Below are positions 4,816 through 36,761 of a stretch of DNA of 64,000 nt, one piece after another (positions within the stretch are counted from its first letter, which is position 1; every line of letters starts with the position of its first letter). Both the position numbers and the translations under genes were made by a program. Source of the DNA: a virus; the IMG/VR virus record IMGVR_UViG_3300050343_000117, positions 1 to 64,000 of that record; one strand, written 5' to 3'. Under the pieces are notes generated by a model. That model searched no databases. It was given only the letters and a program-made list of their open reading frames with translations, and was not told where the DNA came from.

Positions 4816-6991
4816 TTATCCTACTGCGACCGATTCACCGAACGTAGCATATTCACCAGCATCAAACGCGGTTAGTTTGGTTGGTTGCGCAGATAGATCA
4901 CTGGCATCGTAGACATAGACTGAACCACTTCGATCTCCATTGTCGTCGTCCTCTTCGGCACCAACAACAATAGTATTACGGAAAGCATCAAGGGAACCTC
5001 CGAATTTATCACCCGAAGCACCATCAAACGCAGATAGTTTAGTCGGTTGAGCAGATAGATCATTTGCATCATAAACGTATACTGAGCCAGGTCCAGGCCA
5101 CCCCGCATCACCTTCATACCAAGCACCCACAATAATCTTATCAGAGGTGGTAGCAACCGTAATCCCGAAGTTATCATCCGAAGTACCATCAAACGCGGTT
5201 AGTTTGGTTGGTTGCGCAGATAGATCATTTGCATCATAAACGTATACTGAATCCGGAAGTTATCTCCGATGTTGTCGATACGAGTATCTCATTCCAACCA
5301 TGACCTAGATCGGTATACCCAGAAAAGCACCATTGTTACTGTTAACACCAGAGGAACTTACAAAGATGTAGTTACCTGCAACTTCAATATCTCCAGTTCC
5401 GAAGTTGTCATTTCTTGGGCCTGTTACTTCTTTGATAAGAGACCCGTCTTCTTCATTAAAGATAAAGAATCTGCCGACAGATGTGTCCAGAGCTTCACCA
5501 ACGACAATTCTTCCAGAACCGTATGCAACATTACGACCAAATTGACCACCACCACCAGCGGTAGGTCTTTCGATAGACATCACTTCAGTTCCATCTTCTT
5601 CGAACAATTGGACACGTCCAGCGTTATTGTATGCACTAGAACCAACAAGGAATCTTGAATGATTTTCTTGCGTATCGACAGAGGAACCAAATTGATCACC
5701 CGCCGATCCATTTAATCGAGTAATTAAATCTGCCTGTATCGTCTGATAGGTTGAAAATACCAGTGCGACATCGGTTCTAGTACCTACGTAAAGTTTACCT
5801 TCACATTCTATTAACCATGCACCCACACCGTCTATTGAAGGACTATTGTTTTCTGCAATGAAACTGTAAACATGAGTCGTTGTTGTCCAGTGATTATTTG
5901 CACCATATGGCTACCATAGAATATAAGACCGCACCGTTTGCACCATTCGCATTAGCATTGTTGTGTGTTGATGAATCTGTGATTGTGAGTTATCTACTAT
6001 GACATAATCGTCAGTTACTATAAGTCTATTGCTTTGACCACCAAAGTCATTATTTGGTGGGTAAGGATAGTTGGATCCTAGAGACGAGTCTGTCCAGTAA
6101 TCCGTCATTCCCGATGTTAGTGCAAGGGCGCCAGGTCCATATATGGTGTTTGTTAGATTGATTTTACCATTATATGGAGAGTCTGGAGAAGAGTTTACGT
6201 GGCCTGGTCCTGCTGGACCATAACCAAATGCAACATATTCACCATCTGAAGTAGTGAAAGCACCGTATTCTGCGCCTCTGTAACCGTCGCCGATTTCTTG
6301 GTTTTGTTGGCCAGTTGGTAAACCATCAGCACCTAACGCGAATCTGTATACTTTACCTGAGTTTGGATAACCTCCTTGGTCATCATATGGCACACCTACC
6401 CAAAGACTACGTGGGTAAAGATCAGTTGGTTCCGTCAGTAACAGTCTTGGATTCTACCGAATGTCAAGAGATCCACCAGAGTCATTATCGACAGCAAGAA
6501 CCTGTTGAACATATACATATTCATAATATCTTGTAGCAAGTCGATTTCCGTCTAAAGATGCATTGTACTTCTTGCTGACCGAAGTTAGCGTCTGTTACGT
6601 TTGGTCCGTATAGTGTGCGTACTAAACTGCCAGTCGTTCTATCAAAAACTAAAATACGACCACTGTTATTGCCACCGCCAGTATAGTGCAGGTTACCTAC
6701 GAATATATTATCACCGGCCATAAAGATAGAAGAACCTACCATTTGACCACTCGGAGTAGGAAGAGTTGTGTTGTTACCATCCTGATTCATGATGAACGCT
6801 TGACCACCGAAGCTATTGCCGAACATTGCAGTAGTGGCTACAGTCCAAGTGCCTTCAGCTACTGGTGATGTAGATGATGTCGAGCCACTAGAAGATGATT
6901 CTGGTCCTACGTATGGTGGGTTGTCTGCGTCTACACCGGCAATTACTTGACCGGCATGAAACACCGCACCCGCTAAAATTTGATTTGCCAT
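4816..6991 (-). CDS. FG-GAP/integrin-alpha-like beta-propeller repeat protein (several frameshifts)
   Basis: ORFs 6521-6991, 5911-6393, 5305-5826 and 4816-5130 carry repeated xFGxxV...IVVGA...GSVYVY blades. Confidence 0.7.
4860..5227. repeat. Coding tandem repeats of FG-GAP blades
   Basis: 41-nt exact repeat at 4860-4900 and 5187-5227, plus a diverged copy near 5022-5062. Confidence 0.8.
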
Positions 6992-11941: not shown

Positions 11942-11949
11942 TATTTATA
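11942..11949 (-). promoter_or_regulatory. Late promoter TATAAATA heading the head-payload operon
   Basis: Exact consensus about 46 nt upstream of ATG 11895. Confidence 0.75.
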
Positions 11950-12664
11950 TGTCAAGGGAAGTTGAACTATTTTCTTCGTTATATTGAGCGATAGTTTCGC
12001 GGAGAGGACGCACCCAATTATCACGATGTTCGATAAACACCTGTGGTTCATGGTTGTCAACAGAGATAATCGTCACAAGTTGGGTGATAGGCATTCCAGT
12101 GCGTTCTTCCCACATAATTGCATAGGCAGACTCTTGCATGAAGTAGTTCTTAATCCAGTCAAGGCGTTTAGGTTTCATCGAAGTCTTGTAGTCAATGATA
12201 GACAATTTGCCATCGAAGACACCTACGCAATCCACACGACCAGCAACACCCAAATGGGTAGAGTACAGTGGTGCTTCTTGAGCATGGACAGTAGTCAGAC
12301 GTTCGTCAAGAATTGGTTTAATCTTTAGAAAAGAATCTATTAGATCCGGTGTACGTTTGGCCATCTTCGTCTCCCCATTGTCGGGGTTGATGGCAATATA
12401 CTTGTCATAGTCTGGATCGTTGTTGACATACTGTTCACAGATTTCGTGAACCGCAGTACCACGCGTAGATGCGCGATAGGAGACACGGTTTGCTTCTTTC
12501 TCACCGACACGTGCTCGCCATTTAGCAATGGAGTCACGAGACAGTATAGAGAGTACAGTAGTGATAGAAGGTAAGGTGATACCTTCGGGAGTTTCGTATT
12601 GACGACCAGTGTCCGTAGTTACGGCAGTCATCTCATTCAATTCCACAGGAACATGTTCAAACAT
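11945..12664 (-). CDS. PD-(D/E)xK (Cas4/RecB-like) exonuclease
   Basis: PSITTVLS, RGTAVHEICE, EAPLYS, AGRVDC, IIDYKTS, YFMQESAYA. Confidence 0.85.
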   Translation of the reverse strand: MFEHVPVELNEMTAVTTDTGRQYETPEGITLPSITTVLSILSRDSIAKWRARVGEKEANRVSYRASTRGTAVHEICEQYVNNDPDYDKYIAINPDNGETKMAKRTPDLIDSFLKIKPILDERLTTVHAQEAPLYSTHLGVAGRVDCVGVFDGKLSIIDYKTSMKPKRLDWIKNYFMQESAYAIMWEERTGMPITQLVTIISVDNHEPQVFIEHRDNWVRPLRETIAQYNEENSSTSLDI

Positions 12665-12692
12665 AATATAACCTAATCAATTTAATACTAGT

Positions 12693-12721
12693 ATTATACG
12701 TTATTAAAACGTATCTGTCAA
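12693..12721 (-). promoter_or_regulatory. Sigma70-type promoter
   Basis: TTGACA-17nt-TATAAT upstream of the exonuclease. Confidence 0.8.
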
Positions 12722-12760
12722 TAGTAAATCGTGACTATTTTTACCATACTAGTCATATAA

Positions 12761-12930
12761 GAATCCCCACAAGTACAGGGCTCCGAAGGGTACTTTATGT
12801 GTCGGTGAACCGTAACTAACTGCTTGGCATTTTCACATGCACGTTTTGAGAGATCGCAGTTTTAAGTTAGTGCGCGATGGTTGGCGCATTGTTCATCTCG
12901 TGTACCGAGCCCTGTACTGTGTGGGGAAAC
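12761..12930 (-). ncRNA. 170-nt rod-like structured RNA, 6S-RNA-like candidate
   Basis: Terminal arms CCCCACAcAGUACAGGGCUC / GAGCCCUGUACU-UGUGGGG; inner stems GGUAC/GUACC, UGAAC/GUUCA, ACUAACU/AGUUAGU; starts immediately after the tRNA-Ala CCA. Confidence 0.6.
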
Positions 12931-13006
12931 TGGTGGAGTTAGAGGGAATCGAACCCACGACCTTCTGGATGCAAACCAGACGCTCTCCCTACTGAGCTAT
13001 AACCCC
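12931..13006 (-). tRNA. tRNA-Ala(TGC)
   Basis: Cloverleaf, anticodon loop TT-TGC-AT, GTTCGA T-loop, encoded CCA. Confidence 0.95.
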
Positions 13007-13146
13007 AAAATCTTACTTTTCCTTATCTTTACCGAAGATTTTATCCCAGTTATCTCTACCTTGTTTTGATAACGTCTTGGACTGTATTGCGTCTCCGGTG
13101 ATGTCGTTTTTACTTACCATTTTGATGTCATTTATGATCAGTTTAT

Positions 13147-13222
13147 TGGAGCGGGTAGTCGGGTTTGAACCGACCGCCTCAACCTTGGCAAGGTTGCGCT
13201 CTACCAAATGAGCTATACCCGC
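13147..13222 (-). tRNA. tRNA-Gly(GCC)
   Basis: Cloverleaf, loop TT-GCC-AA, encoded CCA. Confidence 0.95.
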
Positions 13223-13229
13223 AATACAT

Positions 13230-14639
13230 TTAGTCGCATCCTAAGTCACGTCGTGATTCTTCATCATTATTAGTGACACACAAACCACTAGGTAATTCTT
13301 CCGGTACGTATCGCATCAACTCAGGATCGTACAGACTTGTCTCTAAGAACGTAACTAGGTTAGCAATTTCTTCTTCAGTCAAGTCAAGTGGTGTGAACCT
13401 ATAGTCTAGATCAACAATCTCTACTTGAGGATGTTGAGGTGATGCGGCAACTTTGTATCGTACTACATCTTCTACACTAGAGAACGACGCACCATGACCG
13501 AATACAGTAGTATCTATAAGGTTGTAAAGTGGTGGTACTTTGAACGCGAACTTATCCATATCGTCACCCGTAAAACCACCACGTCCCGCTTTGGTCGCTT
13601 CGTTTACATCACCAACTACGTCATCCCATATATCTAGGTCATGAAATCCAAGTGTCATAAACATCTCACTGGCAAGAGAACCGACAGGAGATGAAAGAGC
13701 GGGACCGTTATGACAACCGGCACACTGACCTTTACCGAAGAATACTTTCGCACCTTCTACTTCTTCTAGGGTCAATGCCTCTTCGTCACCTCGTAGGAAG
13801 TCTTGAAATGGTGCTTGGTTTGCGAGAATGGTTCTCTCGTATGCGGCAATTGCAAAAGATGCCGCTTCCAACATATCGTGCGGTTGTGACGTACCATATG
13901 CCGCTTCGAACATCATCTGATATTTCTCGTTGGTGGTTAGGATAGAACCCTCTTCCACATTCATACGGTGAACACCAAGTCCCGCAACTGCCTGTGTTTC
14001 TAGACCGGCGAGACTACGTAGGTTAGCCTCTTTGGGAGTACCTTCTGTAAAGTGACGATCCGGATCAATACCAACATTGACGATACCACCAATGACGTTA
14101 CCGAACTGACCATTCCACAACATGACTTCTTGGTAGGCAGTGTTCAGTACTGTAGGTGATGTGACGGGTTGTACATCGATGTCTTCGGGATTGACACCCT
14201 CAGCAATCATACGATGATCAAAACCGACACCACCTTCGCCAATACCTTGACGAATACCGGACTTGAATCCGTTCTGTGCGTTGTGACATGATGCACAAGA
14301 GAAAGTATCTTCCATACCCGCGATGTTGCCGTCGGTGATACCAGTCTCATGATAGATCAACTGTCCCAGTGCTACCTTCTCTGCGGTGATTGGGTTACTG
14401 GGGTCTTGGGGAATGTTTAGGAAGTCGTCACTCTCTGGGAGAATATATCCTTCATAGGAACCTGTTGGTGAGGTTCTGTCCATAATCTCACGGAGTTCAC
14501 CAATGGAGATTTCAAGTGCTGTCGGTTCTGGTACTGCCGGAGGCGCCACCGTCACTGGTTGTGGTGCGGAATCCGAAGTGCCACCCGAACAGGCGCTAAG
14601 GACGGTCGTGCATAATACTACAGATAGTAGGTTTTTCAT
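13230..14639 (-). CDS. Di-haem cytochrome c peroxidase (CcpA/MauG family) lipoprotein
   Basis: Lipobox LSA-C; NPITAEKVALGQLIY; two CxxCH (CASCH, CAGCH); PTVLN, WNGQF, FKVPPLYNL. Confidence 0.9.
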   Translation of the reverse strand: MKNLLSVVLCTTVLSACSGGTSDSAPQPVTVAPPAVPEPTALEISIGELREIMDRTSPTGSYEGYILPESDDFLNIPQDPSNPITAEKVALGQLIYHETGITDGNIAGMEDTFSCASCHNAQNGFKSGIRQGIGEGGVGFDHRMIAEGVNPEDIDVQPVTSPTVLNTAYQEVMLWNGQFGNVIGGIVNVGIDPDRHFTEGTPKEANLRSLAGLETQAVAGLGVHRMNVEEGSILTTNEKYQMMFEAAYGTSQPHDMLEAASFAIAAYERTILANQAPFQDFLRGDEEALTLEEVEGAKVFFGKGQCAGCHNGPALSSPVGSLASEMFMTLGFHDLDIWDDVVGDVNEATKAGRGGFTGDDMDKFAFKVPPLYNLIDTTVFGHGASFSSVEDVVRYKVAASPQHPQVEIVDLDYRFTPLDLTEEEIANLVTFLETSLYDPELMRYVPEELPSGLCVTNNDEESRRDLGCD

Positions 14640-14682
14640 AATATAAGAGCCTCTCAAATACTCTTTTTCAAGTTAGAAAGGA

Positions 14683-14712
14683 ATTATACTATAAAATATG
14701 AGGACTTGTCAA
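14683..14712 (-). promoter_or_regulatory. Sigma70-type promoter of the peroxidase gene
   Basis: TTGACA-18nt-TATAAT. Confidence 0.7.
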
Positions 14713-14722
14713 GGGTAAATGG

Positions 14723-15409
14723 TTATTTATTTTTAACTCGTTTGGTCGCCTGCTTCTCTGCATCAATCCACTTCTGTGCCTTCTTAGAGACAGGTTTGTC
14801 AGTGAACTTCTTAGCATCACGGAATGCAGTTAGAGTTTCTTTCTCGTAGTCTTTACCTTCAGAGTTATCTACAACCAAGAAGTTAGGTTTACCAAACATA
14901 CGTTGGAACTTACCGATATTGCGTTGTACTGCTTTCCAATACTCAGTAACACCTTTCTCGCCTAGGGTACGAGCACGTTTTGCATCACGGCTGATAGCAG
15001 TATCAAGGTCTGTGTTTACGAAAATCATTGCGACATCGTAACCCATGGCCTTTACTTTCTTTGCCTGTTCAGCAATTTTATCTGGGTCTTTACCAGTACC
15101 ATCTACTACGAGACCAAGACGACCTTTCAGATAACGCTCTTCCCTTTTCCCTGTAAGCTTCTTTGCCTTACCACGGAGTTCTTGTCCTTTCGGAGAGAAG
15201 ATGTTGTCCGGAGTCATATCCATATCAACCTTCTTCATAGCAGCTTCGAATGCGTCATCTGAGTTGACAACCTTGTAACCCATAGAAGTCAGACCTGTCT
15301 TACCGACGATGAATGACTTACCAGAACCTGGCCCACCCGCAAGAAAGATTGCCTTGAAGATTGCTGGATCGTTTACGCCTTCGTCTAAGAATGTTTTAAA
15401 AGATTTCAT
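14723..15409 (-). CDS. P-loop kinase (AAA_33 / zeta-toxin / PNK-like)
   Basis: MKSFKTFLDE start; Walker A GGPGSGKS, VNSDD, LVVDGT, lid RDAKRAR. Confidence 0.8.
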   Translation of the reverse strand: MKSFKTFLDEGVNDPAIFKAIFLAGGPGSGKSFIVGKTGLTSMGYKVVNSDDAFEAAMKKVDMDMTPDNIFSPKGQELRGKAKKLTGKREERYLKGRLGLVVDGTGKDPDKIAEQAKKVKAMGYDVAMIFVNTDLDTAISRDAKRARTLGEKGVTEYWKAVQRNIGKFQRMFGKPNFLVVDNSEGKDYEKETLTAFRDAKKFTDKPVSKKAQKWIDAEKQATKRVKNK

Positions 15410-15440
15410 TGTAATAGTATCTGTTGATGGTAGTTGTATG

Positions 15441-15448
15441 TATTTATA
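15441..15448 (-). promoter_or_regulatory. Late promoter TATAAATA for the kinase gene
   Basis: Exact consensus about 31 nt upstream of ATG 15409. Confidence 0.75.
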
Positions 15449-15456
15449 CAAAAAAA

Positions 15457-23697: not shown

Positions 23698-23883
23698 TTA
23701 AATATCATCTCCATTCATAAATCTTTCATTAGCTTTCTTTAGATCGTTTTCGGTACAAGCACCCATCTCTAAAAGATATGCTACTGCGGCATTAATTCCC
23801 TCTTGTCTTCCCATCTTCTTGCCGATATAATTTGCGGTACCCATTAGTACTAATGTCATAATAGTTTGTGAAATTGGGTCCAT
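23698..23883 (-). CDS. Small membrane hypothetical protein
   Basis: N-terminal hydrophobic helix; 61 aa. Confidence 0.5.
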   Translation of the reverse strand: MDPISQTIMTLVLMGTANYIGKKMGRQEGINAAVAYLLEMGACTENDLKKANERFMNGDDI

Positions 23884-35453: not shown

Positions 35454-35820
35454 CTTTGGTAACCTTTTGTTTGATAGTTTTTATTTGTGATTCCGTTAAG
35501 AGCCCTATGACTTGCTTTGCCTTCTGTTCACTGTAACCAAAATATTCCTTGATACATTCCATGTCAGCCCTTTCATCAGGTTTATCCCATTTAGAGAATC
35601 GTTTCTTTTTCCTTACAATATTTATAAGAAAGTCGTACTGCATCTTACCATCTAAGTGATGTAATCTATTCATTTCGTTGGACAAAAAAACCGTGTCCGG
35701 AAAGTATGACAGAGATCTATTAACTAGGAAACCATTGTATTTTTTTACGCACTCCGGATCTTTATCTACCAAGTTAATTTTAGAGGTGTTGATACTATTT
35801 AGGAAGTCAAATGGACTCAC
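35440..35820 (-). CDS. 62: Clamp loader small subunit gp62
   Basis: FLVNRSLSYFPD, QYDFLIN, RKKKRFSKW; synteny. Confidence 0.9.
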   Translation of the reverse strand: MSPFDFLNSINTSKINLVDKDPECVKKYNGFLVNRSLSYFPDTVFLSNEMNRLHHLDGKMQYDFLINIVRKKKRFSKWDKPDERADMECIKEYFGYSEQKAKQVIGLLTESQIKTIKQKVTKGGRE

Positions 35821-36761
35821 GCTTTAATCTCCACGTTCGCCATAACTTCGGTCATACATGCGACTAGATTCAGTTCGTGGTCAGCAACAAACGCATTCTT
35901 GTACTGGTAATCCGCGAGGATAAGAACCAACTGGGGAATACTGTTTGGTGCGACGTGGTCATACATTTTATCATAAATGCTACGGAAGATTGACGCCGGA
36001 TCAACGTCTATATTATTGACTACCCACGTCCTCATCTTCTTGAAGTTCTTGTCACGAATCGCACTGAATAGCTGGGTGTAAGTATCTGAGATATCCGCAC
36101 TCACGCTATTAGGGACATTGAGCGTTCCAGAGATTGATCCTCTCTGACACTCATTCAGTACGCGTCTCCAATCTGGTGCATGTTTCATGATGACGTTTGC
36201 CACCACGTTGTTATCGTACTCCACACCCTCCTCTTGCAAGATTCCTTGGAGACGCTGCATGAACCCACCACATAGCGAGGTCATAGTTTTCTTGTTGAAA
36301 TTGAAGGCGTACTTTGAACACCTTGAGTGTAACGGTTCAATAATCTTGTTCTCAAAGTTACACGTCATAATGAAACGACAATTCTTCGAGAACTCTTCGA
36401 TGAACCCACGGAGAGCAGGTTGCGTCGATTGGGGGTTTAGATAATCTGCCTCATCTAGGATGACAACCTTGTAACCACCGGACAAAGACACGGACGATGC
36501 GAACTGTTTGATCTTACCTCGCAGTGTGTCGATGTTGCCTTCTTCCGACCCATTGATGACGATATAGTCTAGGTCTAGTTCCTCACATATCGCACGTGCG
36601 ACTGTGGTCTTACCAGTACCGGCCGTGCCGGTGAACATCATGTTGAGGATTTCACCACCATCCACAATGTTCTGAAATGTTTGTTTTAAATCTTCCGGAA
36701 GAATTGTTTCGGAAACTTTCTTCGGACGATACTTTTCAACCCATAAAAACTCATTGCTCAT
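35817..36761 (-). CDS. 44: Clamp loader large subunit gp44
   Basis: LWVEKYRP, GTAGTGKTT, ILDEADYL, PLHSRC. Confidence 0.95.
   Translation of the reverse strand: MSNEFLWVEKYRPKKVSETILPEDLKQTFQNIVDGGEILNMMFTGTAGTGKTTVARAICEELDLDYIVINGSEEGNIDTLRGKIKQFASSVSLSGGYKVVILDEADYLNPQSTQPALRGFIEEFSKNCRFIMTCNFENKIIEPLHSRCSKYAFNFNKKTMTSLCGGFMQRLQGILQEEGVEYDNNVVANVIMKHAPDWRRVLNECQRGSISGTLNVPNSVSADISDTYTQLFSAIRDKNFKKMRTWVVNNIDVDPASIFRSIYDKMYDHVAPNSIPQLVLILADYQYKNAFVADHELNLVACMTEVMANVEIKA

Follow-up and report, generated by a model that had tools for sequence, protein, structure and literature searches.

A tRNA-linked structured RNA of a new family in marine T4-like phages

What might a phage gain from a folded RNA of about 170 nucleotides (nt) that begins on the base next to the end of a tRNA gene? 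The question is raised by a 64,000-nucleotide stretch of viral DNA (positions 1 to 64,000 of IMG/VR virus record IMGVR_UViG_3300050343_000117; 'the window' hereafter means this whole stretch). On its minus strand, behind the gene for tRNA-Ala(UGC), lies an element that a first-pass annotation took for a phage-encoded 6S RNA: a rod freed by tRNA processing, acting as a decoy for sigma70 RNA polymerase. The element is a real structured non-coding RNA gene of ~170 nt; its family is new, is missing from Rfam 15 and is confined to one group of marine T4-like phages; the likeness to 6S RNA does not extend to that family. It belongs, as a new family, among the small stable RNAs of the phage tRNA cluster. 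What such an RNA does is considered below, after the evidence that it exists.

The first base of the element (12930) is the next after the encoded CCA of the tRNA, just where the 5′ end had been placed; the 3′ end first proposed (12761) fell short, as the conserved unit extends two bases further and ends ...GGGGAUUCUU. The first-pass annotation saw no credible open reading frame (ORF), and indeed none of 30 amino acids (aa) or more occurs on the RNA strand within the element; the opposite strand holds two, of 52 and 62 aa, both extending into the tRNA. In all, ARAGORN finds 12 tRNAs and no transfer-messenger RNA (tmRNA) in the window.

12931..13006, minus strand: tRNA-Ala(UGC) with encoded CCA (ARAGORN; Rfam tRNA, 69.7 bits)
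12759..12930, minus strand: structured RNA, 172 nt including the U-rich tail (fold z −6.81; 168.5 bits, E 1e-39, with covariance model R2, introduced below)

Folded with RNAfold, 12761-12930 (minus strand) reaches a minimum free energy (MFE) of −63.5 kcal/mol, against −39.1 ± 3.6 for dinucleotide shuffles, none of which (0 of 200) equals it. The homologue in phage C48C1 is also stable (z −4.27). That phage is the single record matching past the tRNA in a blastn search of 50,697 GenBank phages, and its gene order is identical: 475-aa gene, tRNA-Ala, element, exonuclease. Termini and a central block are shared with its copy; the helix arms differ in sequence, yet are again complementary.

Relatives were gathered in several ways. 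Core-pattern scans of IMG/VR gave 7, then 45 contigs; a search by way of the adjacent exonuclease gene added 80 more loci, the best 80 of 485 relatives. A first covariance model (R1), from a MAFFT alignment of five sequences, matched 37 of the 38 newly fetched viral pattern-scan loci; it aligned divergent copies badly and was replaced by R2, built from nine sequences with a hand-set structure of 50 pairs. R2 matches 34 of the 80 exonuclease-fetched loci at E ≤ 0.01 and is silent in the other 46; other sequence occupies the place in the 22 of these that were read. A degenerate core pattern, of a kind that would overlook the most divergent clades, gave 64 matches over 185,579 species genomes, a single one of which (L178) passes R2; a second pattern, for divergent clades, gave 14 viral contigs, all previously known. 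The result is a set of 31 distinct homologous sequences of 151-197 nt (median 169), drawn from IMG/VR contigs, from C48C1 and from one contig binned in a Porticoccaceae genome. The last of these is L178 (copy at 6000-6193, minus strand), a 93-kb contig with the block of tRNA-Gly, tRNA-Ala, RNA and promoter; either a phage contig was assigned to the wrong bin, or it gives a faint pointer to the host.

The five large records that bear the RNA have a single copy each. A second, shortened copy was seen at L011 2747-2903 (the same in L013; G007 35800-35956), with the 3′ half kept and, in place of the 5′ half, foreign sequence that has a hairpin and a U run of its own. In C48C1, a coding sequence for a 31-aa 'hypothetical protein' is annotated within the homologous RNA (GenBank OQ984149 59600-59695; L001 3176-3271), probably a mis-annotation.

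The Rfam comparison assigns the element to no family: a gathering-threshold scan of the window, a scan at E ≤ 10 over 701 nt (12600-13300) and a scan at E ≤ 1 over eight homologue loci returned tRNAs and sub-threshold chance matches only. Full-text literature searches, supplementary files lying outside their scope, found neither this RNA described nor any phage-encoded 6S mimic.

Covariation supports an RNA gene. Among the 31 sequences, 92.3% of 1476 pair cells hold a standard pair, against 72.0% when shuffled (0 of 500 shuffles as high); compensating double changes occur in 42 of the 50 modelled pairs; and the covariation score, 0.528, drops to 0.074-0.104 when partners are slid by one to three columns. 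Three checks are independent of the model-fitted alignment behind these figures. A structure-blind MAFFT alignment keeps 38-50 of the 50 pairs per sequence; RNAalifold, unaided, predicts 31 pairs, 24 of them with compensating changes; and model pairs make up 21 of the 45 highest listed column pairs by mutual information, the top five included. Most of the other 24 (neighbouring columns, or columns from different model pairs) look like clade signal, and the same mutual-information listing holds no convincing tertiary pair beyond the model. The part of the first-pass reading that sees a discrete structured RNA is supported, and the RNA is conserved. Its strand is indicated too: G.U pairs outnumber A.C pairs by 60 to 30, which fits an RNA read from this strand, and one orientation is shared by tRNA, promoter motif and U tail.

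The covariation-supported fold has seven helices. In order, a helix P1 of ~20 base pairs (bp) joins the two ends; a bulge on the 3′ strand, of a few nt (five in the window copy), separates it from the five pairs of P1c; a short P2 leads into a three-way junction; and from the junction branch a GCGC hairpin, H, and a longer arm, P3-P4. At the end of that arm, beside hairpin P5, lies a one-sided loop of ~15 nt with the family form GAUCUCUCAA..CGU. Loop and hairpin make up a core of ~30 nt that is nearly invariant across the family.

12907..12927, minus strand: 5′ arm of P1a/P1b, RNA positions 4-24, C12 bulged (MFE pairs; in P1, double changes in 19 of 20 pairs, 93.1% of cells paired)
12764..12783, minus strand: 3′ arm of P1a/P1b, RNA positions 148-167
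12902..12906, minus strand: 5′ strand of P1c, GGUAC, with partner GUACC at 12789-12793 (double changes in 4 of 5 pairs)
12891..12897, minus strand: 5′ strand of P2, GAUGAAC, with partner GUUCACC at 12804-12810 (double changes in 6 of 6 modelled pairs; 93.0% paired)
12871..12888, minus strand: side hairpin H, UGCGC-loop-GCGCA (absent in 2 of 31 copies, L120 and L109)
12856..12869, minus strand: 5′ strands of P3 (positions 62-66) and P4 (positions 71-75), with partners within 12813-12823 (double changes in 4 of 5 P3 pairs and 5 of 5 P4 pairs)
12841..12855, minus strand: one-sided internal loop, nearly invariant, GAUCUCUCAAAACGU (column conservation over the 31 distinct sequences)
12827..12840, minus strand: hairpin P5, stem GCAU/AUGC invariant, loop variable in sequence and length (2 of 4 pairs never vary, no double changes; 99.2% paired)

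The first-pass description of the anatomy was correct. The terminal helix of 'about 19 bp' is 8 + 12 bp with one bulged C, and the stems GGUAC/GUACC, CUAAC/GUUAG and GCAU/AUGC are modelled and kept in relatives; UGAAC/GUUCA survives only as its GAAC/GUUC core. (In the window copy the model also pairs U36-A125 and G34-C127 in P2, with A35 unpaired opposite C126.) The fold differs from a rod with a two-sided bubble at its centre: the helices meet in a three-way junction, and the sole large loop is one-sided, ~15 nt opposite 2-4 nt. P1c is among the top mutual-information pairs; the P5 stem shows no covariation because it is unchanged across copies. The rest is less constant: hairpin H is unrecognisable in three more copies (L029, L015, L025), and some copies have an additional hairpin in the 3′ strand of the arm.

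In all 31 copies the RNA follows a tRNA at 0-20 nt: 0 nt in 21, 1 nt in one, 7-11 nt in eight and 20 nt in one. ARAGORN identifies the tRNA as tRNA-Ala(UGC) in 29; in L025 it is tRNA-Asp, and in L116 there is an Rfam match without an ARAGORN call. Partial repeats of the RNA 5′ arm occur between tRNA and RNA start in L025 (~2757-2776) and L098 (upstream of 5768), and look like scars of local duplication. As the RNA is flush with the tRNA 3′ end, tRNA 3′ processing would free it; the release mechanism first proposed is thereby supported, by position. On the scale of whole genomes, the five large RNA-bearing records (G000, G007, G008, G010, W01) have 7-12 tRNAs each, tRNA-Ala included; four relatives without the RNA, two complete and two about half complete (G002, G003, G011, G012), have 1-2 tRNAs and no tRNA-Ala. 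Since tRNA-rich genomes alone carry it, the RNA belongs to the tRNA block.

Signals for transcription surround the pair. The T4 late-promoter motif TATAAATA is found no more than 260 nt ahead of the RNA start in 26 of 31 copies, mostly ~10-45 nt before the tRNA in the contexts viewed and farther upstream in at least one (L011). It occurs 13 times in the window, always on the coding strand, against 3.3 expected; and a homologue of the late sigma factor gp55, assumed by the first-pass annotation, is indeed encoded in the record (36.7% identity over 120 aa, E 4e-16). Beyond the helix, at least 7 of 12 nt are U in 23 of 31 copies. An intrinsic terminator would show a G+C-rich stem running straight into consecutive U; here the closing pairs are CCCC/GGGG and the tail is as counted, the 'stem' is the whole 150-nt domain, which is unusual for one, and a terminator scan at the tail sees only a spurious local stem. 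From motif, tRNA linkage and tail counts together, the usual unit emerges as late promoter, tRNA-Ala, RNA and U tract, with no ORF. In the window, the sole strong promoter upstream of tRNA-Gly, tRNA-Ala and the RNA is of the sigma70 type, ahead of a peroxidase gene.

12752..12763, minus strand: U-rich tail past the helix, UUCUUAUAUGAC, 6 U in 12 (weaker than in most relatives; flagged as terminator-like in the scan)
12693..12721, minus strand: consensus sigma70-type promoter (12/12) of the downstream PD-(D/E)XK exonuclease gene; marks the end of the RNA unit
11945-12664: PD-(D/E)XK exonuclease gene (Pfam PDDEXK_1)
14683..14712, minus strand: consensus sigma70-type promoter (12/12) before the 475-aa peroxidase gene

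One way to understand this arrangement, and on balance a probable one, if only slightly so, is that in most relatives the phage makes late in infection a stable RNA, cut off the tRNA transcript, on which the invariant loop and hairpin dock a partner. That is, tRNA-Ala and RNA would be transcribed as a unit, in most relatives from the late promoter just ahead of the tRNA; in the window, where the late motif has decayed, the early-type promoter of the peroxidase gene upstream would drive it; RNA and tRNA would be parted by tRNA-processing nucleases of the host; the end-to-end helix and the U-rich tract would bring transcription to a stop and protect the two ends, giving a stable RNA; and the covarying helices would serve as a scaffold, displaying a nearly invariant 15-nt single strand beside an invariant 4-bp stem. 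Such a pattern, invariant single strand and stem on a covarying scaffold, would be expected where a protein or a second RNA docks specifically. It is therefore proposed that the RNA acts in trans, as a binding platform or a decoy for a putative partner.

Several observations weigh against this account. The covariation alignment was fitted to the model and is hence biased towards it. The window copy itself has no TATAAATA between 11950 and 15440, and its U tail is weak (6/12). A role in cis alone would account for helix and U tract with no partner. Expression data do not discriminate: six RNA-library runs hold 11-30% of the sampled words, and when the contigs of four were compared with the region, one run (X15) had a contig from tRNA-Gly through tRNA-Ala and a relative's RNA copy into the exonuclease gene, a second (X16) spanned 12847-13009, a third (X17), identical to the window, spanned 12675-12850 with the promoter region, and the fourth (X18) covered 13036-13470 only; the contigs that span the element and its flanks, from three studies, are possibly DNA-derived, and show no start, end or level of a transcript.

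Searches for the partner weigh on the same side. When the 662 ORFs of the 137-kb record (83% complete) were compared by tblastn with the four other RNA-bearing genomes and the four relatives without the RNA, 17 non-nested ORFs of at least 60 aa were found in every RNA-bearing genome and in none of the others. Five were set aside, two as overlapping tRNA genes or antisense to longer ORFs, three (two plus-strand ORFs and a 347-aa ORF at 63880-64923) as matching relatives in part of their length only. The remaining 12 (5/5 versus 0/4) include the adjacent 475-aa peroxidase gene and a 61-aa ORF at 23698-23883; no recognisable RNA-binding domain was found in the 11 scanned with Pfam, which excluded the 61-aa ORF. 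Apart from the peroxidase, these gave one tail-assembly chaperone, two weak matches to domains of unknown function and seven blanks. A profile of this kind is confounded by the relatedness of the genomes. As to an RNA partner, 10-nt complements of the invariant loop are absent outside the RNA gene in the five RNA-bearing genomes; two relatives without the RNA have one such site each, and matches of 8-9 nt are scattered.

The alternative that survives best, while still unlikely, dispenses with the partner. It supposes that the element is a 3′ module acting only in cis: helix and U tract would stop transcription of the tRNA unit and insulate it, hold off 3′ exonucleases, or aid maturation of tRNA-Ala by offering a double-strand cleavage site. 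The GC-rich closing pairs, with a U-rich tail behind them in 23 of 31 copies, agree with this, as do the strong promoter of the next gene ~40 nt beyond and the confinement of the RNA to genomes with a tRNA block. Other points count against it. A terminator requires neither a three-way junction nor a constant 30-nt core amid helices that have changed in sequence; the other 11 tRNAs of the window lack such an element; and the distance from tRNA to RNA is not fixed, ranging over 0-20 nt.

A bolder form of the docking account, doubtful and less likely than the cis module, is a decoy of a new structural class, made late, whose invariant loop and hairpin would capture a host protein: either the RNA polymerase holoenzyme or a nuclease of defence or RNA decay that would otherwise be active at the late stage. 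Were it true, it would be the first such phage-encoded RNA in the T4 group and would give a hint as to what the small RNAs in T4-type tRNA clusters do, a question 50 years old; in the case of the holoenzyme, the job of 6S RNA or of AsiA would be done by other means.

A different matter is the 6S-like decoy as first conceived, which would bind host sigma70 RNA polymerase and, late in infection, silence early promoters and those of the host, the phage having no detected AsiA. The general likeness is real enough: ~170 nt, with paired ends. The resemblance noted at first also holds for the window copy. E. coli ssrS (L193) contains CTTAAAACTGCGA and ends ...GGAGATTC, and similar termini and a 13-mer are found in the window RNA. 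As a feature of the family it fails. The 13-nt match shrinks to 10 nt in the nearest relative (L057) and is down to 6-8 nt in the remaining 29, and it sets the 5′ half of the window RNA against the 3′ half of 6S. The window copy aligns locally to E. coli 6S with a score of 26, the best shuffle reaching 25; the other 30 copies score 13-21, within the shuffle range (means 15.2-16.3, maxima 20-27). A canonical 6S RNA (85.1 bits) lies elsewhere in the Porticoccaceae genome bin; it is unlike the phage RNA, and its alignments to the copies score at shuffle level.

Models agree with this in both directions. The Rfam 6S model (RF00013, gathering score 46.4 bits) has no match at E ≤ 10 across the 137-kb record, a silence to be read with the fact that only 5-7 of 14 control genomes gave a match to that model; 6S families are absent from all three Rfam scans described above; and R2 gives E. 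coli ssrS no score. Architecture differs too: 6S RNA is a single long hairpin, irregular in shape, whose closing stem and long internal stem are parted by a large, two-sided central bubble, and no such bubble is found here. Membership in the 6S family is therefore rejected (RF00013 silent, R2 silent on ssrS, 13-mer unconserved, bubble lacking), and with it the identity first given to the element.

A 6S-like function of an RNA outside that family is a separate matter: in 26 of 31 relatives the unit has the late-promoter motif ahead of it, gp55 is encoded, AsiA was not detected in the 83%-complete record, and phage early genes carry consensus sigma70 promoters. All of this would fit a 6S-like job; nothing positive supports one. 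The hairpin past the loop is only 4 bp, probably too short to mimic upstream promoter DNA, and the window RNA would itself rely on a sigma70 promoter. The proposal is best regarded as improbable.

Still less probable is a new self-cleaving ribozyme that would cut at its 5′ end and leave tRNA-Ala with its 3′ end complete. In its favour, no spacer separates RNA and CCA in 21 of 31 copies, covarying helices that carry invariant nucleotides in junction and loop are typical of ribozymes, and a precedent for the role is reported in PMC10879173, in the hepatitis delta virus (HDV)-like ribozymes behind gut-phage tRNAs. No self-cleaving family in Rfam matches, however (HDV-like, hatchet, twister, pistol and hammerhead among them, in the window, 12600-13300 and the eight homologue loci); three unpaired nt before the end-to-end helix would be at odds with an HDV-like nested double pseudoknot; and the spacers of 7-11 nt in eight copies, and of 20 nt in one, mean that a cut there would leave the tRNA unfinished. 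Finally, an element that acts as DNA (a cruciform, an origin or a site of recombination), or a gene for a small protein, as the long inverted repeat and the 31-aa annotation in C48C1 might suggest, is scarcely credible, given the excess of G.U over A.C (60 to 30) on the RNA strand, the covariation of bulged nested helices and three-way junction, the lack of an ORF of at least 30 aa on that strand in the window, and substitutions that are compensatory and not codon-like.

The neighbourhood offers further observations. An inverted repeat that resembles an operator, TGACTA...TAGTCA (6 + 6 bp, 12-nt spacer; 12732-12755), sits past the RNA and ahead of the −35 box from which the exonuclease is transcribed; a similar palindrome, of TGACYAAT...ATTRGTCA type, is at the same position in close relatives. 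The space separating tRNA-Gly from tRNA-Ala is occupied by a candidate ORF of 64 aa with a TTG start (13013-13207, minus strand). The 475-aa gene upstream (13230-14657, minus strand), with its own 12/12 sigma70 promoter, encodes a di-haem cytochrome c peroxidase/MauG-like protein (Pfam CCP_MauG, E 4e-22), and is present in five of five RNA-bearing genomes and none of the four relatives without the RNA. Next to it, a 242-aa ORF (14723-15451, minus strand) matches the P-loop kinase families AAA_33 and Zeta_toxin (E ~1e-10), as would suit an enzyme of the polynucleotide-kinase sort next to the tRNA block.

How, then, does the phage RNA compare with what is known? It has in common with 6S RNA a similar length and paired 5′ and 3′ ends, with terminal letters and a 13-mer shared by the window copy, and a decoy role would suit its late expression; unlike 6S RNA, it has a three-way junction, no central bubble and no family-wide likeness in sequence. 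The 6S label, tempting as it was, is removed as unsupported. Ms1 RNA (PMC9130861) is related to 6S RNA; host 6S RNA and the unrelated '6S' RNA of lambda are treated in parts of PMC8545117 and bioRxiv 10.1101/2024.10.31.621285.

Neither ARAGORN nor the Rfam scans place a tRNA or tmRNA over the element (phage tmRNA is treated in passages of PMC9004378). Y-RNA families are absent from the Rfam scans of the window and of 12600-13300, and Ro60/TROVE (PF05731) has no match at E ≤ 1 in the 83%-complete record. The tRNA-trailer small RNAs of bacteria, such as the 3′ external spacer sponge of a tRNA operon, are by-products of tRNA 3′ processing that act in trans; they are short and weakly structured, whereas the phage RNA is large and multi-helical, with an invariant core and usually its own late promoter and terminator. 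The HDV-like 'theta' ribozymes, reported behind gut-phage tRNAs (PMC10879173), are likewise structured RNAs set right behind a phage tRNA, where they could define its 3′ end; the element differs in topology, in having no Rfam ribozyme match and in a spacer of 0-20 nt.

The closest parallel is one of place. Phage T4 encodes RNAs C and D (rnaC and rnaD; species 1 and 2), whose role is given as unknown in passages of PMC3014915. These are non-coding, 119-139 nt long, and directly behind the last tRNA of the cluster, rnaD starting 1 nt after tRNA-Arg. The element shares with them a T4-type phage and a place behind a tRNA. Homology is rejected: with filters off, the best R2 match at the T4 locus (10.4 bits, E 0.08) falls outside both genes. 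T4 rnaC has a tRNA-like T arm, and the element has no tRNA match; the element has, for its part, an end-to-end helix of 20-30 bp and a different conserved core. With its unusually clear covariation, sharp invariant core, usual late motif and terminator-like tail, it makes a well-defined experimental object; C48C1 (a GenBank record that gives no host), if in culture, could be used to probe the function of a tRNA-linked phage RNA. The small stable RNAs of the T4 tRNA cluster have been known for decades; in this marine relative, an unrelated RNA occupies the same place.

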